From: Eledone cirrhosa
Lineage: Eukaryota
Assembly: GCA_964016885.1 (NCBI GenBank)
Contig: OZ024740.1
Location: forward strand, 207,576,001-207,640,000
Direction of reading: 5' to 3'
Length of the DNA stretch: 64,000 nucleotides
The notes under the pieces are model-generated. The model was not told the DNA's origin. It searched no databases and was given only the letters and a program-made list of their open reading frames with translations. The position numbers were made by a program, and so were the translations under genes. Below are positions 1 through 63,809 of the stretch, piece after piece. How positions within the stretch are numbered: the stretch's first letter is position 1; the number at the start of each line of letters is the position of its first letter.

Positions 1-181
1 ATAGTTTCCATTTATTAATATCATATATATATATATATATTTTACAAATAAGCTTTGACGTACCCTTTTAAAATGCAACCATTATTTTTGGAAGCCATCT
101 GGATAGTGAATTGTTTATATTATTTTAATAAGTCTTAGTGTTAAGGACAATTAGAAAAAGTTTCTTTTGTGATCCTTCAAT

Positions 182-1864
182 ATGAAGGATCACAAAAGAA
201 ACTTTGAAAATGATTTACCAGTCAGATTGATTGCACCATCTAAATCTGACCTGGGCAAACTTAGCAAAAATATTCTAAACAGAGTAATACAACAAATTAA
301 AAACTTACCTAATTTATCTTACTTAACATTATGGAAAGGGACTAGTGAGGTTATCGATTGGTTTAAAGAAATTAAATATAACTATAATAATAAGTTTATT
401 CAGCTGGATATTGCTAACTACTATTCATCTATCACTCCTAATCTACTGAATAAGGCACTAAATTACGCATTTAAACATACAGACCTAACTAGCAATGAAA
501 TGCACATTATATTATCGGCAAGGAAAACATTGATAGAATTTAATAACCAACTCTGGACTAGGGCAGATAGAAATAATAATTTTGACATAACTATGGGATC
601 ATCAGACTCAGCTCAGGTAACGGACCTTGTGGGCCTATTTATAATTAATTCGCTACATAGAAAAATACCAGGTGTAACCGGAGGCTTATATCGTGATGAC
701 ATGCTTTTACTTATAGAAAATAATAGCTGTGAACTAAATAGAAAAAGAAAACAAATTATACAATTTTTTAATTACCTTAATCTAAAAGTAGAAATAGAGA
801 ATAACCATAAAATAGTCAATTTTCTTGATGTAACACTAAATCTCAACACATGTCTTCATTATCCATTTCACAAACTAAATGAGAACTTGAATTATGTTAA
901 TTTTAACTCTAATCACCCCAGATCTGTTAAAAATACTATAGTGAACTCTGTTCAAGAACGAATTTCAAGAATTTCATCTAATAAAAATATATTTGATGAA
1001 AAAGCGCAGTATTACAACGAAGCGTTAGGTAGAGCTGGATATAGAAATAAAATTAAATACATCGATAATAATAATAATAAGCAAACTAACCAAAATAATA
1101 ACAATTTTAATTATGGTAACAACTTTAACAACTATAATAGAAAACATTACAATATTTCCGAAAGCCGAAAAAGAAATAGAACTAGGAATATATTATGGTT
1201 CGCTCCTCCTTTCTCACTAAATATTAAAACCCCTATTGCTAAACTATTCTTTAAAGCTCTTGACAAACGCTTCCCTAGAACACATAAATATTACTCAATT
1301 TTTAATAGACATACTATAAAATTAACTTACTCGTCCACCAAAAATTTAGCACAAAATATTAATAGAATTAATAATAGAAACTTAAAACCTAACCAAAATA
1401 CCAATAATAACCCAAGCAATATTCAATTGAATAACTGTAACTGTAGAAATAAATCTAACTGTCCGTTAAATAATAACTGCTTAGCTAAAAATGTAGTGTA
1501 CAATTGTAATGTTAAAACTAATTTAAATTCATTTAACTATGTCGGTTCTACCTCTACAGAATTTAAATTTCGCTTCAATAATCATAAAAATTCTTTCACA
1601 GATCCAAACAAAAAATCTTCAGCTTCGCTATCTAGCCTACTATGGGACCTTAAACGAAATAATGTTAAATATTCGATGACTTGGAATATTATTTCACAAG
1701 CTACTCCTTTTAATTCCTCTTCAGAAAATTGTGATCTTTGTATTGAAGAAATATTCTTTATATTAAAGTCCAAAAATTCCCTCAATTTAAGGAATAATTT
1801 ATTCAGTTGCTGCAGACATAGATTGAACTCAACGTTTAAATATAAATATAAATTTAAAATGTAG
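182..1864 (+). CDS. Penelope-like retroelement polyprotein (reverse transcriptase + Cys-rich linker + GIY-YIG endonuclease), Naiad-like, 5'-truncated
   Basis: 560-aa open frame with PLE RT motifs KDHK..F....P.RLI, LDIANYYSSI, MGSSDSAQVTDLVG, GLYRDD, NFLDVTLNL and SNHP. Linker CNC..CPL..NCL; GIY-YIG VVY..YVGST..FKFRFNNH; C-terminal CDLC..E..LN.R..CCRH. The ORF begins at the RT start directly after an inversion junction (~160), so the N-terminus is missing. Confidence 0.92.
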   Translation: MKDHKRNFENDLPVRLIAPSKSDLGKLSKNILNRVIQQIKNLPNLSYLTLWKGTSEVIDWFKEIKYNYNNKFIQLDIANYYSSITPNLLNKALNYAFKHTDLTSNEMHIILSARKTLIEFNNQLWTRADRNNNFDITMGSSDSAQVTDLVGLFIINSLHRKIPGVTGGLYRDDMLLLIENNSCELNRKRKQIIQFFNYLNLKVEIENNHKIVNFLDVTLNLNTCLHYPFHKLNENLNYVNFNSNHPRSVKNTIVNSVQERISRISSNKNIFDEKAQYYNEALGRAGYRNKIKYIDNNNNKQTNQNNNNFNYGNNFNNYNRKHYNISESRKRNRTRNILWFAPPFSLNIKTPIAKLFFKALDKRFPRTHKYYSIFNRHTIKLTYSSTKNLAQNINRINNRNLKPNQNTNNNPSNIQLNNCNCRNKSNCPLNNNCLAKNVVYNCNVKTNLNSFNYVGSTSTEFKFRFNNHKNSFTDPNKKSSASLSSLLWDLKRNNVKYSMTWNIISQATPFNSSSENCDLCIEEIFFILKSKNSLNLRNNLFSCCRHRLNSTFKYKYKFKM

Positions 1865-2462: not shown

Positions 2463-3820
2463 TAGGTTTGTTTTGATTCTGACAGCTTCTCATAATTTTC
2501 ATAAGTCTACCCTTTCAATATCTTGATTAAAATATACGTAGGATAAATTTCTATACTAAATATATGAAACATATTATTTTAACTTAAGATACTCTATAGT
2601 GTTTTTAAAGATATTTAATGTTTTGATATTTCTAGAATTCGTTTGTCCTTTAGACTATACTGATATAATTGTATTTCCAAAATATAATCCTTTGGTATTT
2701 TAAATTTATATTGTTATAATTATATTTCCAAAGTATAATCCTTTAGTAATATATTGATATTTGATTATCTCTATACAGATGTGTATGTGTGTATTAACAT
2801 GCATATAAAAGTGTTATATGTTTTTTTTATGATTGTATATCTGTCTGTATGTGTACATGAGCGATGCGGGTCTAACAATTGGTGAAGACGCACGTAAATA
2901 TTTATTTATACATATGTATGTGTATATATATATATATGTATATGTATGTGTGTGGGTGAGAGTTATGTGTGTGCATACTTACCCACGCAGTTTTGATTGC
3001 AGATATGCATAATTTTAACAGAATGTTAAATGCATGAATCGTAATCGTATATATGAAGTCATGAATGTTAATTGTATATATTTATGTATATATACTGTGA
3101 ACTTTTTATAACACAAGGAATGTATAGCAGTGATTAAGAGAAATCATTTGCGTTTTGTATGTCTATATTGTAGACCTGAGTAGATATAATTTCTATTTTC
3201 AGGACGTGTGTATATATATATATATATATTTGTCTATCTTTTCCGTAAGATAGTGGTTTCTCAAATTTTGGCATATTGATCTCAAGTTTTAAACTAAACA
3301 TATAATCATTATTAAACAATGTTTAATTTCTCATATTATATATTTATGTCCCATTCATGAATATTAATATTTATATTTTTATTATTCATTTCATATAAAT
3401 TGTTAACTCAACTTAATATGACATGACGTAAAGTTTTCATTATCTTCCCCTCTCTCTATATATTATTTTTCTCTCTTGAGTCTTTCGATTTGTCTGATGA
3501 CTTGATATCTCTCTGTTGCTTTCCTCTGTTTTTCTTATTTCTTCCTTTTTTCTTTTTTTCTTTCTTTCCTCCTGTCTTTATTTATCTCTCTCTTTTTTCT
3601 CCATGCATTTCTCTCTCTCCGATATTTCTCCACGTTATTTTCTTTTTCTTTTTTTTCTCTCTCTCCGTCTTTTTCTTTCTCTCCGTCTTTTTCTAATTGT
3701 CCTTAACACTAAGACTTATTAAAATAATATAAACAATTCACTATCCAGATGGCTTCCAAAAATAATGGTTACATTTTAAAAGGGTACGTCAAAGCTTATT
3801 TGTAAAACTGTTATATATTG

Positions 3821-3885
3821 TATTTTGTCTGATGAAGGCATACCATAATTTAATTTAGTATCCCTGAAATATGTATAATGAAATA
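3821..3885 (+). ncRNA. Type I hammerhead ribozyme in the PLE terminal repeat
   Basis: Stem I TATTTTGT/ATGAAATA; core CTGATGA 3829-3835; stem II AGG-c-ATAC/GTAT-c-CCT; GAAA 3866-3869; stem III AT(ATGT)AT; AUA triplet. Confidence 0.75.
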
Positions 3886-4013
3886 AATATGGTTTTATAA
3901 ATATAGTTTACATTTATTAATATCGTATATCTACTCCAAATACTTGTCGAGTGCTTTATATCAGTTATACAAATATTTACTTGTTGTATCCCAACAATTT
4001 TAAATAGAACTTT

Positions 4014-4068
<55 letters not shown>

Positions 4069-4851: not shown

Positions 4852-4912
4852 GTCGACTAGTTACCCCAGAAATGGTAACTGGTTGTAGTCGTTCATCGAC
4901 TTTTACTAATGG

Positions 4913-4948
<36 letters not shown>

Positions 4949-5008
4949 CCATTAGTAAAAGTCGAAGAACGACCACGACCAGTTACCATTTCTGGGGTAA
5001 CTAGTCGA
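4852..5008. repeat. ~62-bp inverted repeat pair enclosing (TA)n
   Basis: TCGACTAGTTACCCCAGAAATGGTAAC...CTAATGGTTA versus TAACCATTAG...GTTACCATTTCTGGGGTAACTAGTCGA. Confidence 0.85.
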
Positions 5009-5020
5009 ATATAGATAGAT

Positions 5021-5384: not shown

Positions 5385-5730
5385 GTAAAAGGTAAACAGA
5401 AATAACAACACAATCGGTACAGTATATGGAAGGTATATATTAGGTTAACGCTTGATATAGCAGGAAGAGGATCGTAACGTTTCGGGCGCTAGTCCTTCAT
5501 CAGAAGAAAGAATGAGAAATTAGATACATTGAAGGGACGGGTGGGGTGGAATTGGAAAAATGTTTTTAGAGACAAATAACAGGTCCATTCATGGTGACAT
5601 CTTTTGGAAAACTGTTGATGCTGGCGTTTTCTGCATGATTTATTTCTTAGAAAAGTGGATGATGGAGCGCGTCTACCTGAAATGAAAATAAAAACCGTTT
5701 TGTATAAAGAGCTATACTTGTGCGCGCGTG
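5385..5730 (-). mobile_element. Non-coding HHR-bearing PLE-type element (homologue at 35925-36270; 3' fragments at 40678-40752 and ~59070-59137)
   Basis: ~340-bp dispersed homology. Minus strand 5510-5472 reads CTT CTGATGA A GGactagcgCCC GAAAC GTT. Confidence 0.75.
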
Positions 5731-7761: not shown

Positions 7762-8584
7762 AACGTCTGTCTATCTATCTACTTACATATCTGTCTGTTG
7801 TTATTGTTGTTTCAGTTGTTATTCTAACGCGAAGAAGACTTGGATATTCCAGTGTCTTTACATAGAATGTTGTAATCAAGGATTGATTTGTGTTTACGAT
7901 GCGCCATTTTCGGCGGGTATTATGCTAATATACACGCATACACACACTCATATATATGTACTTATATTTTTCTGCGCACGATTGTTTTTTTCGCTATGAA
8001 TAGTCATTATAGAATAGGTGCAGTAATATCACAATAAGGCACCAGAAGATCTCCAGAAGTTTGCCGGTCATTAAAACAATGATTTTATCACAAATGGATT
8101 TCTCCAGTTTATAACACTGGTCTATTTTCTATAGATAAATCTACTCACTTAAGTCTGTTAATCACAGAGTTTGCCCTGCCATAGTTTAAGAGGGCTTAAG
8201 TTGTATGTTTTAAAAACAATGGCATGAAATAGAGAAGTTTGTTATTTCAAGGATCTTCTCAAATTACATAACACTTTTATCGGATATAATCACGCTTAAA
8301 CCATTATACAAGATAATAACTAGGAATATTATTGAAGGAGGTTAATGACCATATTGGATGTGGTCATTGGCCAATGATTCTACTGGTCTTCAGTTAAAAA
8401 CCAATTACTCAACTACTTGTCCCAGCCGACAGGCTGGGCCATGCTGGGGCACCGTCACCGCTACTACACTTTCTATAGCCAGCCTTCCGTTTGGCCACTG
8501 ATGCAAAAGGGAGTGTGTTGCTGCTGCACTTATTTGTGCTTCGCTTCATGCTGTAGGTTCATCCGGGTTCATCCGTGATCTTTA

Positions 8585-10265
8585 TGATGATGGCAGTGTT
8601 GGATGGTGTTGTGATGGTGGTAGTGGTGAGGGTGGTGGTGGTGGTGGTGTTGGATGACAGTGTTGTGATGGTGTTGTGATGGTGATAGAGGTGAGGGTGG
8701 TGGTGGTGGTGTTGGTGTTGGTGTTGGATGGCAGTGTTGGATGGTGTTGTGATGGTGGTGGTGGTGGTGGTGGTGTTGGATGGCAGTGTTGGATGGTGTT
8801 GTGATGGTGATAGTGGTGATGGTGGTGGTGGTGGTGGTGATGGTGGTGGTGGTGGTGGTGGTGGTGGTGGTGTTGGATGGCAGTGTTGTGATGGTGTTGT
8901 GATGTGATAGTGTTGTGATGGTGATAGTGGTGGTGGTGATGGTGATGGTGGTGATGGTGGTGGTGGTGGTGGTGGTGATGGTGGTGATGGTGGTGGCAGT
9001 GTTGGATGGTGTTGTGATGGTGATAGTGGCGATGGTGGTGGTGGTGTTGGATGGCAGTGTTGTGATGGTGCTGTGATGTGATAGTGTTGTGATGGTGATA
9101 GTGGTGGTGGTGATGGTGATGGCAGTGTTGTGATGGTGTTGTGATGGTGATAGTAGTGATGGTGGTGGTGGTGGTGGTGATGGTGGTGGCAGTGTTGGAT
9201 GGTGTTGTGATGGTGATAGTGGCGATGGTGGTGGTGGTGTTGGATGGCAGTGTTGTGATGGTGTTGTGATGTGATAGTGTTGTGATGGTGATAGTGGTGG
9301 TGGTGATGGTGATGGCAGTGTTGTGATGGTGTTGTAATGGTGATAGTGGTGATGGTGGTGGTGGTGGTGATGGTGGTGGCAGTGTTGGATGGTGTTGTGA
9401 TGGTCATAGTGGCGATGGTGGTGGTGGTGTTGGATGGCAGTGTTGTGATGGTGTTGTGATGTGATAGTGTTGTGATGGTGATAGTGGTGGTGGTGATGGT
9501 GATGGCAGTGTTGTGATGGTGTTGTAATGGTGATAGTGGTGATGGTGGTGGTGGTGGTGATGGTGGTGGCAGTGTTGGATGGTGTTGTGATGGTCATAGT
9601 GGCGATGGTGGTGGTGGTGTTGGATGGCAGTGTTGTGATGGTGTTGTGATGTGATAGTGTTGTGATGGTGATAGTGGTGGTGGTGATGGTGATGGCAGTG
9701 TTGTGATGGTGTTGTGATGGTGATAGTGGTGATGGTGGTGGTGGTGGTGATGGTGATGGCAGTGTTGTGCTGGTGTTGTGATGGTGATAGTGGTGGTGGT
9801 GGGGGTGGTGGTGGTAGTGATGGTGATGGCAGTGTTGTGCTGGTGTTGTGATGGTGATAGTGGTGGTGGTGGGGGTGGTGGTGGTGATGATGGTGATGGC
9901 AGTGTTGTGCTGGTGTTATGATGGTGATAGTGGTGGTGGTGGTGGTAGTGGTGGTGGTGATGGTGATGGCAGTGTTGTGATGGTGTTGTGATGGTGTTGT
10001 GATGGTGGTGGTAATGGTAATGGTGGTGATGGTGGTGGTGGTGGTGGTGGTTGTGATGGTGGTGGTGAAGATGATGATGATAGCAGTGTTGAGATGTTGT
10101 TGTGCTGGTGATAGTAGTGATCACAATGGTGGTGATGGTGGTGGTAATGGTGGTGGTGGTGGTGGTGGTGGTGGTGGTAATGGTGATGGTGGTGGTGGTG
10201 GTGGTGATGATGGCAGTGTTGGAGGTTGTTGTGATGGTGATAGCGGTAATGCTTGTGGTGCTGGT
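8585..10265. repeat. Complex GGT/GAT-derived tandem repeat with higher-order units
   Basis: Recurrent GGCAGTGTTGTGATGGTGTTGTGATG blocks among (GGT)n. Confidence 0.9.
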
Positions 10266-13200
10266 GAGGATGTTGGTAGTGGTGGTAGTGGTGGTGTTAG
10301 GAGTGGTGGTAGTGGTGGTGTCGAGAGTGGTGGTAGTGGTGGTGTTAGGAGTGGTGGTAGTGGTGGTGTCGAGAGTGGTGGTAGTGGTGGTGTTAGGAGT
10401 GGTGGTAGTGGTGGTGTCGAGAGTGGTGGTAGTGGTGGTGTTAAGAGTGGTGGTAGTGGTGGTAGTGGTGGTAGTGTTGGTAGTGGTGGTAGTGGTGGTG
10501 TCAAGAGTGGTGGTAGTGGTGGTGGTAATACTGGTGGTAGTGGTGGTAGTGGTGGTAGTGGTGTTGTCAAGAGTGGTGGTGGTGGTGGTAGTGGTGATAG
10601 TGGTGGTGTTAAGAGTGGTGATAGTGGTGGTGTCAAGAGTGGTGGTAGTGGTGGTGTCAAGAGTGGTGGTAGTGGTGGTGTTAAGAGTGGTGGTAGTGGT
10701 GGTGTTAAGAGTGGTGGTAGTGGTGGTGTTAAGAGTGGTGATAGTGGTGGTGTCAAGAGTGGTGATAGTGGTGGTGTCAAGAGTGGTGGTAGTGGTGGTG
10801 TCAAGAGTGGTGGTAGTGGTGGTGTTAAGAGTGGTGGTAGTGGTGGTGTTAAGAGTGGTGGTAGTGGTGGTGTTAAGAGTGGTGATAGTGGTGGTGTCAA
10901 GAGTGGTGATAGTGGTGGTGTCAAGAGTGGTGGTAGTGGTGGTGTTAAGAGTGGTGGTAGTGGTGGTGTTAAGAGTGGTGGTAGTGGTGGTGTTAAGAGT
11001 GGTGATAGTGGTGGTGTTAAGAGTGGTGATAGTGGTGGTGTCAAGAGTGGTGATAGTGGTGGTGTCAAGAGTGGTGGTAGTGGTGGTGTTAAGAGTGGTG
11101 GTAGTGGTGGTGTTAAGAGTGGTGGTAGTGGTGGTGTTAAGAGTGGTGATAGTGGTGGTGTCAAGAGTGGTGATAGTGGTGGTGTCAAGAGTGGTGGTAG
11201 TGGTGGTGTCAAGAGTGGTGGTAGTGGTGGTGTTAAGAGTGGTGGTAGTGGTGGTGTTAAGAGTGGTGATAGTGGTGGTGTCAAGAGTGGTGATAGTGGT
11301 GGTGTTAAGAGTGGTGGTAGTGGTGGTGTTAAGAGTGGTGGTAGTGGTGGTGTTAAGAGTGGTGGTAGTGGTGGTGTTAAGAGTGGTGATAGTGGTGGTG
11401 TCAAGAGTGGTGATAGTGGTGGTGTCAAGAGTGGTGGTAGTGGTGGTGTTAAGAGTGGTGGTAGTGGTGGTGTTAAGAGTGGTGGTAGTGGTGGTGTTAA
11501 GAGTGGTGGTAGTGGTGGTGTTAAGAGTGGTGATAGTGGTGGTGTCAAGAGTGGTGATAGTGGTGGTGTCAAGAGTGGTGGTAGTGGTGGTGTTAAGAGT
11601 GGTGGTAGTGGTGGTGTTAAGAGTGGTGGTAGTGGTGGTGTTAAGAGTGGTGGTAGTGGTGGTGTTAAGAGTGGTGGTAGTGGTGGTGTTAAGAGTGGTG
11701 GTAGTGGTGGTGTTAAGAGTGGTGGTAGTGGTGGTGTTAAGAGTGGTGATAGTGGTGGTGTCAAGAGTGGTGATAGTGGTGGTGTCAAGAGTGGTGGTAG
11801 TGGTGGTGTTAAGAGTGGTGGTAGTGGTGGTGTTAAGAGTGGTGGTAGTGGTGGTGTTAAGAGTGGTGGTAGTGGTGGTGTTAAGAGTGGTGATAGTGGT
11901 GGTGTCAAGAGTGGTGATAGTGGTGGTGTCAAGAGTGGTGGTAGTGGTGGTGTTAAGAGTGGTGGTAGTGGTGGTGTTAAGAGTGGTGGTAGTGGTGGTG
12001 TTAAGAGTGGTGATAGTGGTGGTGTCAAGAGTGGTGATAGTGGTGGTGTCAAGAGTGGTGGTAGTGGTGGTGTTAAGAGTGGTGGTAGTGGTGGTGTTAA
12101 GAGTGGTGGTAGTGGTGGTGTTAAGAGTGGTGATAGTGGTGGTGTTAAGAGTGGTGATAGTGGTGGTGTCAAGAGTGGTGATAGTGGTGGTGTCAAGAGT
12201 GGTGGTAGTGGTGGTGTCAAGAGTGGTGGTAGTGGTGGTGTTAAGAGTGGTGGTAGTGGTGGTGTTAAGAGTGGTGGTAGTGGTGGTGTTAAGAGTGGTG
12301 ATAGTGGTGGTGTCAAGAGTGGTGATAGTGGTGGTGTTAAGAGTGGTGGTAGTGGTGGTGTTAAGAGTGGTGATAGTGGTGGTGTCAAGAGTGGTGGTAG
12401 TGGTGGTGTCAAGAGTGGTGGTAGTGGTGGTGTTAAGAGTGGTGATAGTGGTGTTGTAAAGAGTGGTAGTAGTTGTGGTGGTAGTGGTGGTGTTAAGAGT
12501 GGTGGTAGTGGTGGTACTGGTGGTAGTGGTGGTAGTGGTGGTGTCAAGAGTGGTGGTAGTGGTGTTGTTAAGAGTGGTGGTAGTTGTGGTGGTAGTGGTG
12601 GTGTTAAGAGTGGTGGTAGTGGTGGTGTTAAGAGTGGTGGTAGTGGTGGTGTTAAGAGTGGTGGTGGTAGTGGTGTCGAGAGTGGTGATAGTGGTGGTTG
12701 TGGTGGTATCAAGAGTGGTGGTAGTGGTGGTGTTAAGTGTGGTGGTAGTGGTGGTGTTAAGAGTGGTGGTAGTGGTGGTAGTGGTGGTGTTAAGAGTGGT
12801 GGTAGTGGTGTTGTTAAGAGTGGTGGTAGTGGTGTTGTAAAGAGTGGTAGTAGTTGTGGTGGTAGTGGTGGTGTTAAGAGTGGTGGTAGTGGTGTTGTTA
12901 AGAGTGGTGGTAGTGGTGGTGTTAAGAGTGGTGGTAGTGGTGGTTGTGGTGGTATCAAGAGTGGTGGTAGTGGTGGTGTTAAGTGTGGTGGTAGTGGTGG
13001 TGTTAAGAGTGGTGGTAGTGGTGGTAGTGGTGGTGTTAAGAGTGGTGGTAGTGGTGTTGTTAAGAGTGGTGGTAGTGGTGGTAGTGGTGGTGTTAAGAGT
13101 GGTGGTAGTGGTGGTGTTAAGAGTGGTGGTAGTGGTGGTAGTGGTGGTATCAAGAGTGGTGGTAGTGGTGGTGTTAAGAGTGGTAGTAGTGATGGTGGTA

Positions 13201-14790
13201 GTGGTGTTGTTAAGAGTGGTGATAGTGGTGGTGTTAAGAGTGGTGGTAGTGGTGGTAGTGGTGGTGTTAAGAGTGGTGGTAGTGGTGGTAGTGGTGGTGT
13301 CAAGAGTGCTGGTAGTGGTGGTGTTAAGTGTGGTGGTAGTGGTGGTGTTAAGAGTGGTGGTAGTGGTGGTTGTGGTGGTATCAAGAGTGGTGGTAGTGGT
13401 GGTGTTAAGTGTGGTGGTAGTGGTGGTGTTAAGAGTGGTGGTAGTGGTGGTGTCGAGAGTGGTGGTAGTGGTGGTGTTAAGAGTGGTGGTAGTGGTGATA
13501 GTGGTGGTGTCAAGAGTGGTGGTAGTGTTGGTGTTAAGAGTGGTGGTAGTGGTGGTGTTAAGAGTGGTGGTAGTGGTGGTGTTAAGAGTGGTGGTAGTGG
13601 TGGTAGTGGTGGTGTCAAGAGTGCTGGTAGTGGTGGTGTTAAGAGTGGTAGTAGTGATGGTGGTAGTGGTGTTGTTAAGAGTGGTGATAGTGGTGGTGTT
13701 AAGAGTGGTGGTAGTGGTGGTAGTGGTGGTGTTAAGAGTGGTGGTAGTGGTGGTAGTGGTGGTGTCAAGAGTGCTGGTAGTGGTGGTGTTAAGAGTGGTA
13801 GTAGTGATGGTGGTAGTGGTGTTGTTAAGAGTGGTGATAGTGGTGGTGTTAAGAGTGGTGGTAGTTGTGGTAGTGGTGGTAGTGGTGGTGTCAAGAGTGC
13901 TGGTAGTGGTGGTGTTAAGAGTGGTAGTAGTGATGGTGGTAGTGGTGTTGTTAAGAGTGGTGGTAGTGGTGGTGTTAAGAGTGGTGGTAGTGGTGGTGTT
14001 AAGAGTGGTGGTAGTGGTGGTGTCAAGAGTGGTGGTAGTGGTGGTGTTAAGAGTGGTGGTAGTGGTGGTGTTAAGAGTGGTGGTAGTGGTGGTGTTAAGA
14101 GTGGTAGTAGTGGTGGTGTCAAGAGTGGTGGTAGTGGTGGTGTTAAGAGTGGTGGTAGTGGTGGTGTTAAGAGTGGTGGTAGTGGTGGTGTCAAGAGTGG
14201 TGGTAGTGGTGTTGTCAAGAGTGGTGGTAGTGGTGGTAGTGGTGGTAGTGGTGGTAGTGGTGATGTCAAGAGTGGTGGTAGTGGTGGTGTTAAGAGTGGT
14301 GGCAGTGGTGGTGTCAAGAGTGGTGATAGTGGTGGTGTTAAGAGTAGTGGTAGTGGTGTTGTTAAGAGTGGTGGTAGTGGTGGTGTTAAGAGTGGTGGTA
14401 GTGGTGGTGTTAAGAGTGGTGGTAGTGGTGTTGTTAAGAGTGGTGGTAGTGGTGGTGTTAAGAGTGGTGGTAGTGGTGTTGTTAAGAGTGGTGATAGTTG
14501 TGGTGTTAAGAGTGGTAGTAGTGGTGATGTCAAGAGTGGTGGTAGTGGTGGTGTTAAGAGTGGTGGTAGTGGTGGTGTTAAGAGTGGTGGTAGTGGTGTT
14601 GTTAAGAGTGGTGGTAGTGGTGGTGTTAAGAGTGGTGGTAGTGGTGGTGTTAAGAGTGGTGGTAGTGGTGTTGTTAAGAGTGGTGGTAGTTGTGGTGTTA
14701 AGAGTGGTGGTAGTGGTGGTGTTAAGAGTGGTGGTAGTGGTGTTGTTAAGAGTGGTGGTAGTTGTGGTGTTAAGAGTGGTGGTAGTGGTG
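10266..14790. repeat. 24-bp minisatellite (GGTGGTAGTGGTGGTGTTAAGAGT and variants), ~4.5 kb
   Basis: TTAAG recurs at 10681 and 10705 (period 24); GAT/GGT and GTC/GTT variants. Confidence 0.95.
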
Positions 14791-15038
14791 AAGGCTGATG
14801 TTATTGATGGTATGTGTGGTAATAGTGATAATGGTATTATTTTTGTTAGCAGTGGTGATGGTATTGGTGGTGTTTGTGTTGGTAATGGTGGTTTTGGCAG
14901 CGGTAGAATCGTTGGAAGTATTGGTGGTAATGAAGTGGTGGTGGTGGTGGGGTGGTGGTTACAACGGTGTGTGGTTGCTGTCCTTGGTGCTGGCGTAAAA
15001 ATATAGAAAATAAAACAAATGTTATAGAGAAAATGTAT

Positions 15039-16844: not shown

Positions 16845-18937
<2,093 letters not shown>

Positions 18938-18941
<4 letters not shown>

Positions 18942-19483
18942 GTAGGTAAAGTCAATTTTTTAAAATTTATTTTGAAACTTTCATTATCTGCTAAACCTTG
19001 TTTATATATGTTCTGGCTCGTTAATTTATTAACCTGCCAATGAACCACATTGGCATTTGGTTGGACAATACATGCGTCCCTTAGCGCCTTGTGCGTGAAG
19101 GAACACATATCCTATTATTACTATTCTCCTCTATTGTTGAGAAGCAAATTTGGTTTTTCCGACTGCTGCTAGTGATAGTTGCGGCCGGTTGACCTACCTC
19201 CCTCTGCCTCTATCTTTACTTCGGCCCTTGAAAAAATTGATTCCACTTCATTCACTCTCATCTCGGGAACAGTTTTGGATAGCGCTAGTTCGTAATTTAT
19301 ATTCAAGAATTTTATATTCTTCGAATGAAAAGAACCTTCTGACGAGAATCTTTCTTTGCAACGAAGGCCGTATGGCCTCCGTTTATTTTTGGGATTCGAA
19401 ACCGATCGGTAAAGGTAACTATAGTAGGTAAAGTCAATTTTTTAAGATTTATTTTGAAACTTTTTCATTATTTTCTAAACCTT

Positions 19484-19490
<7 letters not shown>
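18938..19490 (+). mobile_element. Retrozyme-like 482-bp unit with ~70-bp terminal direct repeat
   Basis: AGTAGGTAAAGTCAATTTTTTAA...CTAAACCTTGTTTATATA at 18941 and 19423; flanked by (TA)n; contains an HHR. Confidence 0.8.
19334..19416 (+). ncRNA. Type I hammerhead ribozyme with canonical core and extended stem II
   Basis: ACCTT CTGACGA GAATC..(AACG.AGGCC gtat GGCCT.CGTT)..GATTC GAAAC CGATCG GTA AAGGT. All three stems pair; GUA triplet at 19409-19411. Confidence 0.88.
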
Positions 19491-19556
<66 letters not shown>

Positions 19557-19564
19557 AAAGTCTG

Positions 19565-19825
19565 TCTTAAGCCAGAATACTCATTTGGCTGGTGCTTATC
19601 CCGGTTTCATGGCGTGAAGCAACTGAGAATACAAGACTCCCCCCTGGACAGGACGCCAGTCCATCGCAGGGTTAAACCTCCAGCTATTGCAGGTACTCAT
19701 TTTCAGCTGAGTATACTGGAGCAACGTGAAATGAAGTGTTTTGGTCAAGAACACAACACGCAACCCAGGAATCGAACCCACGACATTATGATCGTAAGTC
19801 CAACACTCTTACCACTAGCCCACAG
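19565..19825 (-). mobile_element. tRNA-derived SINE family B
   Basis: Minus strand has A box GGCTAGTGGTAAGAG, B box GGTTCGATTCC and a core TTCTTGACCAAAACACTTCATTTCACGTTGCTCCAG. Confidence 0.8.
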
Positions 19826-21032: not shown

Positions 21033-21087
<55 letters not shown>

Positions 21088-21228
21088 GTGGAACACTGGA
21101 AGGTAATATCCGTAGTGGTAGAGCACTCAGTCCAAGGGACGAGTTAGGTAGAAGTGGTTACACCATACCGAGAACAATTGTTTCACCTTCGCGGATCTTC
21201 AGCAGATCCGCGAAGGTGAGTTGAAGAT

Positions 21229-21268
21229 CCGAGCTGAAGATCCGCGAAGGTGAAACAATTGTTCTCGG
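21229..21268 (+). ncRNA. Minimal type I hammerhead ribozyme (inverted, 5'-truncated copy at 21168-21203 on minus)
   Basis: CCGAG CTGAAGA t CC gcgaa GG t GAAAC AATT GTT CTCGG. Perfect 5-bp stem I; palindromic AACAATTGTT. Confidence 0.8.
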
Positions 21269-21296
21269 TATGGTGAACTAACTGTTGTGTAACCAC

Positions 21297-21720
<424 letters not shown>

Positions 21721-30677: not shown

Positions 30678-31111
30678 AACGATCGACTTTCGTCAAATCG
30701 GACCGAGGGAACAATGTTTCCGTTGGTCTTTCCAATTGCTAATACTATCTATCGGTCGCAACTCCAGGTAGAGGGAGGAACGTGAAATAAAGTGTCTTGC
30801 TCAAGGACATAACGCATCGCCTGGTCCAGGAATCGAACTCAACCTTACGGTTGCGAATCCAATTCTCTAACCACTCAGCCACACGCCTTCACTGAAGGCG
30901 TGTGGCCCAGTGGTTAGAGAATTGGATTCCTAATCGTGAGGTTGTGAGTTCGATTCCCGGACCGGGCGATGCGTTATGTCCTTGATCAAGACACTTTATT
31001 TCACGTTGCTCCTTCTACCTGGGGTTGCGACCGATAGAGAGTACTAGCAATTGGAAAGACCAACGGAAACATTGTTTCCGTGGTCCGATCTGACGAAAGT
31101 CGATCGACTGA

Positions 31112-31282: not shown

Positions 31283-31342
<60 letters not shown>

Positions 31343-31607
31343 TAAACGGAATAGAAAATGCTGACAAATTGTTCACAGTTGAAAAATGGTTTAATTAGGA
31401 ATAAAAGAGTATTAGTGATTGTATGGGTTAGTATTCAGTTGTGGTTTTTAACTTAAAAACTTAAAACCACAACTGAATACTAACCCATACAATCACTAAT
31501 ACTCTTTTATTCCTAATTAAACCATTTTTCAACTGTGAACAATTTGTCAGCATTTTCTATTCCGTTTACCAATATATAATAACTTGTGTGTTACACCTCT
31601 ATTCTTT

Positions 31608-31670
<63 letters not shown>

Positions 31671-35924: not shown

Positions 35925-36270
35925 GCACGCGCACAAGTATAGCTCTTTATTCAAAACGTTTTTTTCCATTTCAGGTAGACGCGCTCCATCATCCACTTTT
36001 CTAAAAAAATAAATCATACACAAAACGTCAGCACCAACAGTTTTCCAAGAGATGTCACCATGAATGGATCTGTTATTTTTATCTAAAGACATTTTTTTCA
36101 ATTCCACCCGGCCAGTCCCTTCAATCTATCTTATTTCCGATTCTTTCTTCTGATGAAGGACTAGCGTTCGAAACGTTAAGACCCTCTTCCTGCTATTTTA
36201 AGCATTAACCTAATATATCCCTTCCATATACTGTACCGGTTGTGTTGTTATTTCTGTTTACCTTTTACAC
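35925..36270 (+). mobile_element. HHR-bearing PLE-type element (family of 5385-5730); minimal HHR at 36146-36181
   Basis: TCTT CTGATGA A GGAC tagc GTTC GAAAC GTT AAGA; 4-bp stem I; palindromic AACGTT. Confidence 0.8.
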
Positions 36271-38389: not shown

Positions 38390-38394
<5 letters not shown>

Positions 38395-38720
38395 ATCAAA
38401 AGATGGTTAAAAGAGTTCCATGTATTTTATTATGCGCATTTCAAAAACAAATATCATCATGAGATGACATTTGCGTTTTCGTCAGATAAAATAGGGATAC
38501 ATGATATGAAGGTTAAAAAACACTTGTGAATAGTGCAGTTTTAAATCAACATATCAACATATATGTTGATTTAAAACTGCACTATTCACAAGTGTTTTTT
38601 AACCTTCATATCATGTATCCCTATTTTATCTGACGAAAACGCAAATGTCATCTCATGATGATATTTGTTTTTGAAATGCGCATAATAAAATACATGGAAC
38701 TCTTTTAACCATCTTTTGAT

Positions 38721-38725
<5 letters not shown>
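38390..38725. mobile_element. Near-perfect ~165-bp-arm palindrome of two back-to-back HHR-bearing PLE-type 3' ends in (TA)n
   Basis: Arms read as exact reverse complements; centre TCAACATA-TCAACATA-TATGTTGA. Confidence 0.9.
38622..38692 (+). ncRNA. Type I hammerhead ribozyme (mirror copy at 38423-38493 on minus)
   Basis: TATTTTAT CTGACGA AAA-c-GCAAATGTCATC tcat GATGATATTTGT-t-TTT GAAAT GCGC ATA ATAAAATA. Perfect 8-bp stem I; palindromic ATGCGCAT; AUA triplet. Confidence 0.85.
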
Positions 38726-38771
<46 letters not shown>

Positions 38772-39189
38772 CGTGTAACGTGCAGTTACAGTCGGTTCCC
38801 CCAGGTGAGCACTCGATGTTTAGATTCACGCCTGTAACTAGGTGAAGAGCTAAACAGAGAATAAATATAATAATAAAAGGACGATTTGTTATCTCTTCAG
38901 AGGCCCGACTAGCTTTTGATTCCAGAGTCGGGCCAGATCAATACAGATCGAACCTTGAGCTGCTCAATAGCGAAATGGGCGTCACCAACCAATAAACGTA
39001 ATGAAAACATAGCAAATCGTCCTTTTATCATATATATATATATATGCTCTGTGTTATATATGTCACCCCTGTCTTCAACCTTTAAATGATATCTCCTATA
39101 TTTCTATCTTTAATGACATAAACACATTGAGCTTAAATATATTATTGTTTGGCAATTTGAATTATTTTTAGTTAACTCCATCTCTCTCT

Positions 39190-39754: not shown

Positions 39755-40660
39755 ATAAGTATGTATACGTACATACATATATGTATACAGACGTACAGTA
39801 GTATGTATATATATATACATACATACACACATATATATATATGTACGTATGGATTCACCGAACATTTATTATAATGCTCGGTGTGTTTGTAAACAAACAT
39901 CCCGAATTAAGCCGTACAGTGTCTAGCAACCATCGTTGCTCATTTGTTCAACACTGACAAAGGAACGCTGTACTAGTTTCAAGCTTATTAGCTATCGTCA
40001 GCAACGTATACCTTCCTGCCAGATGATTGAACGTCTGAATGTATATACTTTCCTTATGCATATTAACGGCTGAGCAGCCTAATTTGCATATCGAGTGAGT
40101 TAATCGGCCGGGCGCACCGAAAACGATAAACGGAAAAAAATGAAACGAAATTTCATTTCTCACTCTTAGTACGGCTGTTACTTAAATATAAGTATGTATA
40201 CGTACATACATATATGTATACAGACGTACAGTAGTATGTATATATATATACATAAATGCACACATATATATATATGTACGTATGGATTCACCGAACATTT
40301 ATTATAATGCTCGGTGTGTTTGTAAACAAACATCCCGAATTAAGCCGTACAGTGTCTAGCAACCATCGTTGCTCATTTGTTCAACACTGACTTAATTTTA
40401 GTACTAATTTTAAAACTAGTACAGCGTTCCTTTGTCAGTGTTGAACAAACGAGCATCGACGGTTGTTAGACACTGTACGGCTTAATTCGGGATGTTTGTT
40501 TACAAACACACCGAGCATTATAATAAATGTTCGGTGAATCCATACGTACATATATATATGTGTGCATGTGTGTATATATATGTATATATATATATATATA
40601 CATACTACTGTACGTCTGTATACATATATGTATGTACATATACATACTTATATTTGTATA
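39755..40660. mobile_element. Retrozyme-like 433-bp unit: ~1.5 minus-sense copies plus an inverted arm; relatives at 20086-20210, 42510-42960 and 44300-45210
   Basis: AGTATGTATACG at 39758 and 40191; inversion near 40390-40410. Confidence 0.8.
39965..40007 (-). ncRNA. Minimal type I hammerhead ribozyme
   Basis: ACGTTG CTGACGA t AGCT aata AGCT t GAAAC TA GTA CAGCGT; 6-bp stem I; palindromic ACTAGT; GUA triplet. Confidence 0.82.
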
Positions 40661-41048
40661 TATATATATATATATATGTAAAAGGTAAACAGAAATAACA
40701 ACACAATCGGTACAGTATATGAAAGATATATATTAGGTTAGCGCTTGATATCGTAATCTTCCACTTATATGTGTTGTTGCTAGTGAAACTTTAGACAAAT
40801 TGATATCCATTTGGTTTACAATCAAAGTTTTTTACGGTTCTTTATTATTCATGTATCATTTTGTTGGCAAATATCTACTCTATATATGTCATATTTCTTT
40901 TTCTTATCCAGTTTGCCCAAGTGTAATGATATTGTTTGTAGGAAATGATCGAAACATGAAGTTATAGATTTTAGTTTCGGTGGTTCGGTTACATTTTGGA
41001 ATGCGTAAAGTAATGACTGTCACCAATCACGACTAACGTATACTTGAG

Positions 41049-42303: not shown

Positions 42304-42961
42304 AAAGGCGTGATAAAGTGTGTGATCAAGTGAGAGTAATGAAACCTATATTATTATATATTATTAATTGTTTTATAAATGTATTCATCATGTGATAGAA
42401 TCATTAAAGTAAATATACCATTATCTCGTGTGGTTGGTGGCTGAAAGCTAGCCAAGATTTCCTGATTGTGTTGGTGAGTGGACTGAAGCCACTGCTAAAC
42501 TAAGCTGGGTTGACTTTGCTTATCAGCCATTCCAGGTTGACAATACATAGACACACATACAAACACACATAGACACATACACACAGATAGACACACACAA
42601 ACACACAAACACATAAACACACACACAAACACACAAACACGCACACACACACACGCACACACATATACACACACACACATATATATATATATATGGAAAA
42701 GAATGAAACGAAATTTCATTTCTCACTCTAAGTACGGCTGATACTTTAATATAAGTATGTATACGTACATACATATATTATACAGACGTACAGTAGTATG
42801 TATGTATATACACATACATGCACACATATATATATGTACGTATGGGTTTACCGAACATTTATTATAATGTTCGGTTTGTTTGTAAACAAACAGCCCGAAT
42901 TGCGCCGTACAGTGTTCGGCAACCATCGTCGCCCTTTTGTTCAACACTGACAAAGGAATGA

Positions 42962-43000
<39 letters not shown>

Positions 43001-44283: not shown

Positions 44284-44916
44284 ATATATATATATTTATA
44301 TAAAAATGAGGCTCAAATTGTTGTTTATATATATATTTGCTTATCAGCCATTCCAGGTTGACAATACATAGACACACATACAAACACACATAGACACATA
44401 CACACAGATAGACACACACAAACACATAAACACACACACAAACACACACAAACACACACACACGCACATACACACACACACGCACACACACACACGCACA
44501 TACACACACGCGCACACACACACTCGCACACACATACACACACACATATATATATATATATTTACCGAACATTTATTATAATGTTCGGTTTGTTTGTAAA
44601 CAAACAGCCCGAATTACGCCGTACTGACAAAGGAAAGATGATATATATATATATATATATATCATCGTTCCTTTGTCAGTGTTGAACAAAAGGGCGACGA
44701 TGTACGGCGTAATTCGAGCTGTTTGTTTACAAACAAACCGAACATTATAATAAATGTTCGGTAAACCCATACGTACATATATATATGTGTGCCTGTATGT
44801 ATATATATACATACTACTGTACGTCTGTATACATATATGTATGTACGTATACATACTTATATTTAAGTATCAGCCGTACTAAGAGTGAGAAATGAAATTT
44901 CGTTTTATTCTTTTCC

Positions 44917-44956
<40 letters not shown>

Positions 44957-45499
44957 ATATGTGTGTGCGTGTGTGTGTGCGCGCGTGTGTGTGTGTGTGT
45001 GTATGTGCGTGTGTGTGTGTGTGCGTGTGTGTGTGTATATGCGTGTGTGTGTTTGTGTGTGTGTTTATGTGTTTGTGTGTTTGTGTGTGTCTATCTGTGT
45101 GTATGTGTCTATGTGTGTTTGTATGTGTGTCTATGTATTGTCAACCTGTAATGGCTGATAAGCAAATATATATATATATATAAACAACAATTTAAGCCTC
45201 ATTTTTAAGGCAAATACAATAACAATTTTGGAACACGAACTGACGCGAAATTTATTGTACTTATTCACGTGACAGTCATCAACCAAAAAAAAAAAAAAAA
45301 AAAGCCCCACCAATTCGAGCCACTCTTTCCACATAAAACAGAAAGAAATTTCGGACACGAACCAGATGCGAGATAAACCACAAACCCTCTCAATTCTACA
45401 TTTGAAAAGCATAAATATTCTTAAAAAGACTCCAGTTGTATTTTCGATTTCTTTTCCTCATACTTTCACCCATGTAGGACATCTCGTTTTTTATTTAAA

Positions 45500-48232: not shown

Positions 48233-51200
48233 TTGCTGGGTAGCTGACCTCTACAACACTACTGTTGCTGGGTAGCTGACCTCTACAACACTACTGTTGT
48301 TGGGTAGCTGACCTCTACAACACTACTGTTGTTGGGTAGCTGACCTCTACAACACTACTGTTGTTGGGTAGCTGACCTCTACAACACTACTGTTGTTGGG
48401 CAACTGACCTCTACAACACTACTGTTGTTGGGCAACTGACCTCTACAACACTACTGTTGCTGGGCAGCTGACTTCTATAACACTACTGTTGTTGGGCAAC
48501 TGACCTCTACAACAGTACTGTTGCTGGGCAGCTGCTTCTACAACACTACTGTTGCTGGGCAGCTGACTTCTACAACACTACTGTTGCTGGGTAGCTGACT
48601 TCTACAACACTACTGTTGCTGGGCAGCTGACTTCTACAACACTACTGTTGCTGGGTAGCTGACTTCTACAACACTACTGTTGCTGGGTAGCTGACTTCTA
48701 CAACACTACTGTTGCTGGGTAGCTGACCTCTACAACACTACTGTTGCTGGGTAGCTGACCTCTACAACACTACTGTTGCTGGGTAGCTGACTTCTATAAC
48801 ACTACTGTTGCTGGGTAGCTGACTTCTACAACACTACTGTTGCTGGGTAGCTGACTTCTACAACACTACTGTTGTTGGGCAACTGACCTCTACAACACTA
48901 CTGTTGCTGGGTAGCTGACCTCTACAACACTACTGTTGCTGGGTAGCTGACTTCTACAACACTACTGTTGTTGGGCAACTGACTTCTACAACACTACTGT
49001 TGCTGGGTAGCTGACCTCTACAACACTACTGTTGTTGGGCAACTGACCTCTATAACACTACTGTTGCTGGGTAGCTGACCTCTACAACACTACTGTTGCT
49101 GGGCAGCTGACTTCTACAACACTACTGTTGTTGGGCAACTGACCTCTACAACACTACTGTTGCTGGGTAGCTGACCTCTACAACACTACTGTTGCTGGGC
49201 AGCTGACTTCTACAACACTACTGTTGCTGGGTAGCTGACCTCTACAACACTACTGTTGCTGGGTAGCTGACCTCTACAACACTACTGTTGCTGGGCAACT
49301 GACCTCTACAACAGTACTGTTGTTGGGCAACTGACCTCTACAACACTACTGTTGCTGGGTAGCTGACTTCTACAACACTACTGTTGCTGGGTAGCTGACC
49401 TCTACAACACTACTGTTGCTGGGTAGCTGACTTCTACAACACTACTGTTGCTGGGCAGCTGACTTCTACAACACTACTGTTGTTGGGCAACTGACCTCTA
49501 CAACACTACTGTTGCTGGGTAGCTGACTTCTACAACACTACTGTTGCTGGGTAGCTGACTTCTACAACACTACTGTTGTTGGGCAACTGACTTCTACAAC
49601 ACTACTGTTGTTGGGCAACTGACCTCTACAACACTACTGTTGCTGGGTAGCTGACCTCTACCACACTACTGTTGCTGGGTAGCTGACTTCTACAACACTA
49701 CTGTTGCTGGGCAACTGACCTCTACAACACTACTGTTGCTGGACAGCTGACTTCTACAACACTACTGTTGTTGGGCAACTGACCTCTACAACACTACTGT
49801 TGCTGGGTAGCTGACTTCTACAACACTACTGTTGTTGGGTAGCTGACCTCTACAACACTACTGTTGCTGGGTAGCCGACTTCTACAACACTACTGTTGCT
49901 GGGCAACTGACCTCTACAACACTACTGTTGCTGGGCAGCTGACTTCTACAACACTACTGTTGTTGGGCAACTGACCTCTACAACACTACTGTTGCTGGGT
50001 AGCTGACTTCTACAACACTACTGTTGCTGGGTAGCTGACCTCTACAACACTACTGTTGCTGGGTAGCTGACTTCTACAACACTACTGTTGCTGGGTAGCT
50101 GACTTCTACAACAGTACTGTTGCTGGGTAGCTGACTTCTACAACACTACTGTTGTTGGGCAACTGACCTCTACAACACTACTGTTGCTGGGCAGCTGACT
50201 TCTATAACACTACTGTTGCTGGGTAGCTGACTTCTACAACACTACTGTTGCTGGGTAGCTGACCTCTACAACACTACTGTTGCTGGGTAGCTGACCTCTA
50301 CAACAGTACGGTTGCTGGGTAGCTGACTTCTACAACACTACTGTTGTTGGGCAACTGACCTCTACAACACTACTGTTGCTGGGCAGCTGACTTCTATAAC
50401 ACTACTGTTGCTGGGTAGCTGACTTCTACAACACTACTGTTGCTGGGTAGCTGACTTCTACAACAGTACTGTTGCTGGGTAGCTGACTTCTACAACACTA
50501 CTGTTGCTGGGTAGCTGACTTCTACAACAGTACTGTTGCTGGGCAACTGACCTCTACAACACTACTGTTGCTGGGTAGCTGACCTCTACAACAGTACGGT
50601 TGCTGGGTAGCTGACTTCTACAACACTACTGTTGTTGGGCAACTGACCTCTACAACACTACTGTTGCTGGGTAGCTGACTTCTACAACACTACTGTTGCT
50701 GGGTAGCTGACCTCTACAACACTACTGTTGCTGGGTAGCTGACTTCTACAACACTACTGTTGTTGGGCAACTGACTTCTACAACACTACTGTTGTTGGGC
50801 AACTGACCTCTACAACACTACTGTTGCTGGGTAGCTGACTTCTACAACACTACTGTTGCTGGGTAGCTGACCTCTACAACACTACTGTTGCTGGGTAGCT
50901 GACCTCTACAACACTACTGTTGTTGGGCAACTGACCTCTACAACACTACTGTTGTTGGGCAACTGACCTCTACAACACTACTGTTGCTGGGTAGCTGACC
51001 TCTACAACACTACTGTTGTTGGGTAGCTGACCTCTACAACACTACTGTTGTTGGGCAACTGACCTCTACAACACTACTGTTGCTGGGTAGCTGACTTCTA
51101 CAACACTACTGTTGTTGGGCAACTGACCTCTACAACACTACTGTTGCTGGGTAGCTGACTTCTACAACACTACTGTTGTTGGGTAGCTGACCTCTACAAC

Positions 51201-52101
51201 ACTACTGTTGTTGGGCAACTGACCCCTACAACAGTACTGTTGCTGGGTAGCTGACTTCTACAACAGTACGGTTGCTGGGTAGCTGACCTCTACAACAATA
51301 CTGTTGCTGGGCAACTGACCTCTACAACAGTACGGTTGCTGGGTAGCTGACTTCTACAACACTACTGTTGCTGGGTAGCTGACCTCTACAACACTACTGT
51401 TGCTGGGTAGCTGACCTCTACAACACTACTGTTGCTGGGTAGCTGACTTCTACAGCACTACTGTTGCTGGGTAGCTGACCTCTACAACATTACTGTTGCT
51501 GGGTAGCTGACCTCTACAACACTACTGTTGCTGGGTAGCTGACTTCTACAACACTACTGTTGTTGGGCAACTGACCTCTACAATACTACTGTTGCTGGGT
51601 AGCTGACCTCTACAACAGTACGGTTGCTGGGTAGCTGACTTCTACAACACTACTGTTCCTGGGTAGCTGACCTCTACAACACTACCGTTGCTGGGTAGCT
51701 GACTTCTACAACACTACTGTTGCTGGGTAGCTGACTTCTACAACACTTCTGTTGCTGGGTAGCTGACTTCTACAACACTACTGTTGCTGGGTAGATGACC
51801 TCTACAACAATACTGTTGCTGGGCAACTGACCTCTACAACAGTACGGTTGCTGGGTAGCTGACTTCTACAACACTACTGTTGCTGGGTAGCTGACCTCTA
51901 CAACACTACTGTTGCTGGGTAGCTGACCTCTACAACACTACTGTTGCTGGGTAGCTGACTTCTACAACACTACTGTTGCTGGGTAGCTGACCTCTACAAC
52001 ACTACTGTTGCTGGGTAGCTGACCTCTACAACACTACTGTTGCTGGGCAACTGACCTCTACAACACTACTGTTGCTGGGCAACTGACCTCTACAACAGTA
52101 C
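48233..52101. repeat. 32-bp minisatellite (CTGTTGCTGGGTAGCTGACYTCTACAACACTA), ~120 copies
   Basis: TAGCTG at 48241 and 48273; no spacers. Confidence 0.97.
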
Positions 52102-54185: not shown

Positions 54186-54629
54186 CAAAAGTTTTATTTA
54201 AAATTGTTGGGTTACAACAAGTAAATATTTTATAACTGATTTAAAGCACTCGACAAGTTTTTGGAGTAGATATACGATATTAAACAAATGGAAACTATAT
54301 TTATAAAACCATATTTATTTCATTATACATATTTCAGGGATACCATATTAAAAATATGGCATGCCTTCGTAAGATAAAATACAATATATAAACAGTTTTA
54401 TAAATAATTTTGACGTACCATAATATAAGCGACCATTAAATTAGGAGGCTGCCTCCTAATTTAATGGTCGCTTATATTATGGTACGTCAAAATTATTTAT
54501 AAAACTGTTTATATATTGTATTTTATCTGACGAAGGCATGCCATATTTTTAATATGGTATCCCTGAAATATGTATAATGAAATAAATATAGTTTTATAAA
54601 TATAGTTTCCATTTGTTTAATATCGTATA

Positions 54630-54632
<3 letters not shown>
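54186..54632. mobile_element. Palindromic back-to-back pair of 3' ends of the Naiad-like PLE family; HHR at 54519-54584 (+), mirror copy with CTTACGA core
   Basis: Centre AGGAGGC-T-GCCTCCT at 54450; homologous to ~3745-4015. Fold: TATTTTAT CTGACGA AGG-c-ATGCCATATT ttt AATATGGTAT-c-CCT GAAAT ATGT ATA ATGAAATA. Confidence 0.85.
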
Positions 54633-54690
<58 letters not shown>

Positions 54691-54760
54691 GGGTGTGGTA
54701 AGGAACCAGATGGACCATAACGCACCAGAGTACTCAATACTCAGGGTAGTAGAGTGGGTA

Positions 54761-54863
54761 ATAGGAAAATGTTTGACCCCGACGGCAATTGTCAAGCCAT
54801 TTCGACTGCTATTTCAGAAATAGCCGTCGAAACGGCTTGAGCTCTGCCGTTGGGGTCAAACAT

Positions 54864-54870
<7 letters not shown>
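54761..54870. repeat. ~55-bp-arm imperfect palindrome; related single arm at ~37995-38050
   Basis: GAAAATGTTTGACCCCGACGGCA...GCTATTTC / GAAATAGC...TGCCGTTGGGGTCAAACATTTTC. Confidence 0.75.
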
Positions 54871-59068: not shown

Positions 59069-59139
59069 AAAATGTAAAAAGAAAAAAATAACACAATCAG
59101 TACAGTATATGGAAGGAATATATTAGGTTAACGCTTGTC

Positions 59140-63350: not shown

Positions 63351-63809
63351 AAGTATGTCTTGCTGATCAGTAAGACATACCCCTTTAAGAAAACCCACTG
63401 TACAAATAAGAAATGTGTTATATATAAAATGAACTCCGAGTTAAAGTGTAAAACTATAAATGTTGTCTATAGCATAAGATGTACAGAGGGTACTTGCAGA
63501 CACAGGACAACGACATACATAGGTGAGACAGCTCGAAGCATAGGAGAAAGAATAGACCAACACTGGGGGAAACTAATAGGACAAAAAAAAAACGGTTTAG
63601 TACTATATGAACACGCCAGACAACAACATGACGGTAATATAGACAACATAGAAATTGAAATAATATCTAAGCATAGAAATGACTCAACAGGTAGGCAAAT
63701 CAGAGAAGCAACTGAGATAGAACTAAGAAGACCAAAGTTGAACAGGAAGACCGAATGGAATAAAAACAACCATACCCAAACAAATAATACTGACTTAAGG
63801 GAAATATAA
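63350..63809 (+). pseudogene. GIY-YIG endonuclease end of a second Penelope-like family, 5'-truncated
   Basis: C..NVVYSIRC....C....YIGETARSIGERIDQH..LYEH..H..RQIREATEI..PKLNRKTEW. Confidence 0.85.

Follow-up and report, generated by a model that had tools for sequence, protein, structure and literature searches.

The insertion at positions 18938-19493 of the window (the whole 64,000-nt stretch of DNA that was analysed) is very probably a non-autonomous, non-coding element of 482-484 nt, mobilised by a Penelope-like reverse transcriptase-endonuclease that targets (TA)n, and its 5' end lies within 13 nt of the predicted cut of its own hammerhead ribozyme. The link between cleavage and this boundary is partly supported. 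The surrounding window is microsatellite-rich animal DNA, suggestive of octopus in its repeat style, and the insertion comprises 1.15 units of non-coding sequence set between two (TA)n arrays. Its parts are listed here, with numbering relative to the cut such that +1 is the first base 3' of it:

18906-18941, no strand: upstream (TA)n array, part of the target, overlapping the 5' junction by TATA
18938-19009, plus strand: first terminal repeat, forming the insertion's 5' end, equal to +9 to +82 from the cut, with the true end anywhere at 18938-18942
19010-19333, plus strand: body of the non-coding unit, also covered by other copies in public runs
19334-19416, plus strand: type I hammerhead, with the cut predicted after 19411
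19412-19419, plus strand: the 8 nt from the cut to the repeat, present in the internal copy and missing from the insertion's 5' end
19420-19493, plus strand: second terminal repeat (tail), whose 3' end lies inside a TATATAT microhomology at +76 to +82
19487-19550, no strand: downstream (TA)n array, part of the target

The two terminal repeats (18938-19009 and 19420-19493) align with 69 identities, 3 mismatches and 2 gap letters in a BLAST-type alignment within the window, which bears out an earlier sequence-only reading of this DNA in placing the start of a terminal direct repeat at 19420 and matching it to the insertion start at 18938. The 482-nt monomer of that reading also stands, as the spacing between the repeat starts; taken as 19010-19493, the unit measures 484 nt. 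Its third positional claim, a 5' end about 9 nt from the cleavage site, holds for the nearness and not for the single position: the junction is a range from +9 to +13, because the TATA at +9 to +12 also belongs to the (TA)n array, and 8-12 nt are accordingly missing at the 5' end. Microhomology with (TA)n is present at both ends of the insertion. A coding role was rejected, since no ORF remnant was found in the insertion and the longest stop-free run across the whole of it is 96 codons; tblastn against the Penelope-like ORF of the window gave no match. The insertion thus lacks the ORF with reverse transcriptase and GIY-YIG endonuclease that marks an autonomous Penelope-like element, and has the partial tandem anatomy and microsatellite targeting of a Penelope-dependent one. 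To the right of the downstream array is a SINE-like repeat (19551-19810; 73% match to 30901-31012), with a tRNA B-box-like motif seen by eye near 19770 on its minus strand.

The hammerhead has the core CUGACGA at 19339-19345, GAAA at 19398-19401 and a GUA triplet that ends at 19411, exactly where the cut had been proposed, although cleavage there is itself a prediction. Helix I (19334-19338/19412-19416) has 5 bp, helix II (19346-19352/19391-19397) has 7 bp enclosing 38 nt, and helix III is a 10-nt palindrome (19401-19410). All elements of a type I core (CUGANGA, GAAA, NUH and three helices, with helix I open) are in place, together with the G10.1-C11.1 pair. A strict motif scan found 9 matches in the window, whereas 100 shuffled windows averaged 0.03 each, and the motif is not a chance match. 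Rfam returned no hammerhead match at the gathering score, nor among 15 matches at E up to 5, and the window's other hammerheads likewise went undetected by Rfam at the gathering score. The classical metazoan type I layout given in the accessible text of PMC4209133 (6-bp helix I, 4-bp helix II, interacting loops) is absent. The description of the ribozyme as textbook canonical therefore fits the core and not the periphery (the 5-bp helix I, the 7-bp helix II around 38 nt, the palindromic helix III and the lack of an Rfam match); the core is canonical, and the periphery is a Penelope-type variant.

In predicted structures, the active fold of the monomer is less stable by 2.1 kcal/mol than an inactive one in which the core is buried, and a double hammerhead lies 1.2 kcal/mol above the free fold of the tandem pair; the predicted self-duplex of helix III has an energy of -16.6 kcal/mol. 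The 83-nt motif holds 2 of the 40 substitutions listed (6.9 expected, P 0.023). Both keep pairing; the core and helices I and III contain none of the 40 listed, with 99 more outside the listing. Single-letter insertions into the helix III loop (19404-19405) occur in 81 of 531 and 20 of 529 reads; they break the palindrome and permit a 3-bp stem, possibly shifting the ribozyme towards activity as a monomer.

The unit (19010-19493) was compared with four of 15 public sequencing runs, X1, X4, X5 and X13, of which X5 carries another organism code. Family matches number 714 contigs in X1, 29 contigs in X4, 1899 reads in X13 and one contig in X5, the family pieces in these runs being shorter than one unit. 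Head-to-tail joints from 19491/19493 to 19010 occur in X1, X13 and X5, whereas other copies run into (TA)n at 19107 (X4) and 19118 (X1). The sequence is thus non-coding, multi-copy and head-to-tail, with one type I hammerhead per unit, as expected of a non-LTR retrozyme. Exact-pattern scans gave 0 matches in metagenome contigs and 0 in viral contigs.

One X1 contig (depth 7) contains a fold-back that, read by hand, is centred at +2/+3, i.e., 2-3 nt after the cut; before it picks up again at 19414, the contig has 8 letters, and 7 of these form the reverse complement of +2 to +8. This is one of two non-head-to-tail joints among those listed. Neither a begin peak nor a loose end falls at 19412-19424 among those listed (7 of 9 and 18 of 157, respectively), in a comparison that is largely blind to such ends. 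The depth of X1, which as contig depth is not copy number, passes the cut without a sharp step (72.9k, 81.9k and 95.7k in successive bins). The begin and end peaks and large loose ends of X13 were rejected as element boundaries, since all those listed sit on AATT or CATG sites, the peak at 19447 on an AATT created by a common variant. X13 cannot speak to starts at 19420, because the AATT at 19436 leaves about 20 alignable letters.

A candidate source of the machinery lies outside the insertion:

173-1864, plus strand: 5'-truncated Penelope-like ORF with reverse transcriptase and C-terminal GIY-YIG endonuclease

By eye, this ORF has CxCX5C, CxxC and CxH motifs of Hydra type, and these motifs define the Hydra clade in the accessible text of PMC8557442. 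Its nearest Atlas clusters carry RVT_1, GIY-YIG and HTH_animal on some members; Pfam and PDB gave no match to it, and a Naiad identity is ruled out by the C-terminal endonuclease. An inverted piece (29-205) joins the ORF sequence to the end of a hammerhead-bearing family (B), which is thereby tied to the ORF. The segments concerned are 173-1864 and 3687-4017, and the hammerhead core of family B is at 3829.

Altogether, five further hammerhead families (B-F) occur in the window, giving at least six in 64 kb. Given these families and the Hydra-type ORF, we interpret the studied insertion as a non-autonomous, retrozyme-like, Penelope-dependent element, whose machinery most likely comes from the Hydra clade; that a Hydra-type element supplies it is inferred. 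No sequence link was found between the 482-484-nt family and the Penelope-like ORF of the window, nor a match, within the window, to the one family that is linked to that ORF. A dependence of retrozyme-like elements on Penelope-like elements is argued in the available portion of bioRxiv 10.64898/2026.07.22.740005. The element class is already known, and the studied family is a further member of it.

The neighbouring elements are arranged in several ways. Family D (16943-18905) has a 559-nt unit, with about 2.4 units on the minus strand lying head-to-head with 1.07 units on the plus strand, and in its three hammerheads the triplet is GUU and the base of helix II has a C-A mismatch; the studied insertion occupies the (TA)n array at its right end. 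Families C (38393-38722) and B (54186-54633) form near-perfect head-to-head pairs, with both centres about 125 nt upstream of the cut, even though BLAST shows no relation between the two. Family F has a minimal hammerhead (core 36150, GUU) and copies at 5385-5726, 35928-36268, 40678-40746 and 59083-59136; two share a 5' end at -249, and two short copies begin about 20 nt after the cut. More short elements sit between (TA)n arrays (4860-5010, 21085-21300, 21400-21716, 31340-31611, 38769-39030 and 54688-54870), several with inverted arms, and hammerhead scans found none in them. The window also holds LINE-type fragments with RVT_1 and zf-RVT matches (57272-58081, 59092-59703 and 62969-63466) and long minisatellites (8584-14800 and 48233-52101, with 24/48/72-nt G-rich and 32-nt units).

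Family E, which is unrelated to the studied family by BLAST, serves as a comparator, through two loci:

39757-40649, minus strand: family E comparator, 433-nt unit, hammerhead core at 40001, cut after 39971
42689-42963, minus strand: solo copy of family E that meets (TA)n at +1 (+4 at the most)

The first holds 1.47 units that run across one intact ribozyme to an end at +13, an anatomy shared with the studied insertion; this +13-ending copy is joined, head-to-head, to another, whose start is about 9-12 nt before the cut. The solo junction is given as at most +4 because +3 differs from the reference copy; at +1 there is no TA overlap (over 12 passes, chance about 0.03). Of three junctions in this family that appeared to lie at +1, two are duplicates, leaving one event: 42689-42963 and 44663-44922 share flanks over 42516-42986 and 44641-45166, and the piece 44528-44624 belongs to the same secondary duplication. 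The duplicated segment (42516-42986 and 44336-45166) combines a fragment of family E with (TA)n, (TG)n and some 30 nt of flanking sequence, and recurs 2 kb away, inverted, partly doubled and ending in (TA)n. This is possibly a flank transduction by the same machinery.

The sequence-only reading had attributed the template's 5' end to self-cleavage, which is plausible, a fair bet rather than a result. The fold-back at +2/+3 and the family E ends at +1 and +13 point to the cut. Against this, the insertion crosses an intact cut site (19411/19412), so that its template was uncut or re-ligated there, its junction carries TATA microhomology, and 8 of the 10 other independent insertion events in the window end elsewhere. 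Set against the cut sites within the window, the two events at +1 to +13 are both from family E, and the remaining ends are at -249, -190, -125, -123/-126, -52, about -10, about +20 (twice), +42 and +96. The family E end 9-12 nt before the cut counts against cleavage, because a cut template cannot give it. Outside this window, the available text of PMC11167929 reports that hammerhead mutants of an Anolis Poseidon element inserted normally in vitro, with uncut RNA as the main substrate, and that no RNA-seq reads started or ended at the cut; in the accessible part of bioRxiv 10.64898/2026.07.22.740005, in vitro cleavage failed in 8 of 9 predicted retrozyme dimers from Xenopus.

By hand count, reverse transcriptase passed a cut site 12 times, reading through in 10 and stopping within 13 nt in 2, where 0.39 stops are expected (binomial P 0.057, or 0.085 with arms counted apart; P 0.01 if the selected copy is included). 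For the studied insertion itself, an end this close to the cut has a probability of 2.7% if ends are uniform, and of 1 in 5 if they fall on TA microhomologies of at least 4 nt. The latter null follows from the unit having five such matches, at +9, +76, +180, +371 and +386, of which the TATA at +9 to +12 is the first after the cut, and from all three exactly readable family ends lying on one (+9 to +12, +76 to +82 and, in X4, +180). This null supports a less likely alternative, in which a linear multimer that had not been cut was the template, ordinary truncation resolved at the TATA microhomology gave the 5' end, and cleavage had no part in the boundary. The scatter of the other window ends, from -249 to +96, also fits it, as does the 5' truncation described as typical of Penelope-like elements in the accessible text of PMC8557442, and truncation was perhaps favoured by stalling at the ribozyme helices, which would suit the end about 10 nt before the cut. 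An uncut template does not lead one to expect the family E junction at +1, which has no TA microhomology, or the fold-back in X1, and the reverse transcriptase would have passed five TA sites to stop at the last one before the cut.

It is improbable that the template was a circular monomer, made by cleavage and ligation with two ribozymes, which the reverse transcriptase circled 1.15 times, in line with the retrozyme model in the literature, before a stop near the cut that was incidental. Copies of more than one unit occur in three families (1.15 units here, 1.47 in E and about 2.4 in D), and circular RNAs of coral, mussel and axolotl retrozymes are shown in the accessible text of PMC7229834. 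Drift from ends that were once identical could account for the 4 differences between the repeats (about 2 expected, by estimate), and repeat divergence does not discriminate a circle from a tandem template. Folded as a circle, the unit has only modest stability (z -1.9, 40 shuffles); moreover, a circle has no 5' end, and so the ends at +1 to +3 are unexplained by it. Finally, the low X1 depth at 19129-19145 (0.6k, vs about 100k near the tail) might suggest either a gutted by-product, rarely made, of an autonomous Penelope-like element that is itself abundant, or a partial duplication at the DNA level, with no self-propagating 484-nt family, but this is very improbable, given that a 283-letter X4 piece (8 differences) spans the middle of the unit, that X13 reads with several different variants cross it (depth 115 vs 407 at the tail, about a quarter), that the loose ends at 19123 go on as a diverged version of the family sequence, and that there is no ORF remnant.

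The reading that we prefer, in which partial cleavage of a tandem transcript sets the 5' end, can be put as a chain of steps; for the whole of it, including the role of cleavage at the studied insertion, the chances appear evenly balanced. A tandem locus would be transcribed, and its hammerheads would cut incompletely, best as a double hammerhead, leaving an RNA with its 5' end at the upstream cut and an intact downstream ribozyme that has lost its partner. The enzyme would then nick (TA)n and prime inside the RNA at TATAT, 76-82 nt past the downstream cut site. Reverse transcriptase would traverse the intact ribozyme and a complete unit before reaching the cut end; the end of the cDNA would then attach to the upstream (TA)n by way of the nearest 4-nt TATA, with 8 nt dropped. 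Hammerhead cutting of tandem Penelope-like precursors is a published hypothesis (accessible text of PMC4209133), internal initiation is shown for the Anolis element, there without homology (available text of PMC11167929), and ribozyme processing of 5' ends is established for R2 and L1Tc (accessible portions of PMC6765202 and PMC7761336). Template jumping between two cut monomers was set aside, since the internal junction shows no flaw and the 12 indels listed (of 15) all lie elsewhere.

More generally, we tentatively propose, at somewhat less than even chances, that genomic 5' junctions of Hydra-dependent non-autonomous elements record germ-line hammerhead cleavage, and that partial cleavage of a tandem transcript (a cut 5' end with an intact downstream ribozyme) is by itself enough to create the pseudo-LTR redundancy of Penelope-type insertions, with no circle. 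Insertion junctions would then be a fossil record of template ends and provide in vivo evidence for a role of the hammerhead, countable over the thousands of copies in the genome. As far as the accessible texts go, that role in Penelope-like elements is 'still unclear' (PMC8557442), 'still a mystery' (PMC7761336), auxiliary (PMC6431247) or, in vitro, dispensable (PMC11167929). We found no study mapping genomic 5' junctions to hammerhead cuts in the main texts searched, most subscription papers being outside that scope. Since 64 kb contain at least six hammerhead families, cut linear, uncut linear and circular templates can be told apart in this genome by computation alone. Recently active Penelope-like families are listed in an octopus repeat annotation, from whose main text the word 'ribozyme' is absent in the part available (PMC13282606).

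Compared with the animal non-LTR retrozymes, as described in the accessible parts of PMC7229834 and bioRxiv 10.64898/2026.07.22.740005, the studied family has the same non-coding head-to-tail unit with one type I hammerhead, a high copy number, a GC content below 50% (38% here) and co-occurring Penelope-like elements. Its 484-nt unit is longer than the 150-450 bp of the former source and within the 51-972 bp of the latter. Unlike these retrozymes, the locus has a single complete ribozyme, without the classical loop 1-loop 2 layout. The short helix I, long helix II and palindromic helix III are instead those of the Penelope pLTR hammerheads (available text of PMC4209133).

Hydra-clade elements carry hammerheads, and nearly all of their insertions are in (TA)n (accessible text of PMC8557442). 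The studied insertion resembles those of the same source in its partial tandem structure, its terminal redundancy and its (TA)n target, in which no duplication can be read; inverted copies placed head-to-head, here in the neighbouring families, are a further likeness (PMC4209133 and PMC8557442, in part). The 3' ends spread from +76 to about +190, in contrast to the 30-40-bp tail of Hydra-clade elements in these two sources. Unlike Hydra-clade elements, the family has no ORF, and no autonomous parent was identified by sequence. Relative to R2 and L1Tc, the ribozyme is of another class, and most of it lies upstream of the cut, so that it is kept only via the next unit. In R2 and L1Tc, the ribozyme lies downstream of its cut and is retained at the 5' end. 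If our best model is true, the likeness to these elements, with their HDV-like ribozymes at the 5' end, would be that a ribozyme releases the template's 5' end from a longer transcript (PMC6765202 and PMC7761336, accessible portions).
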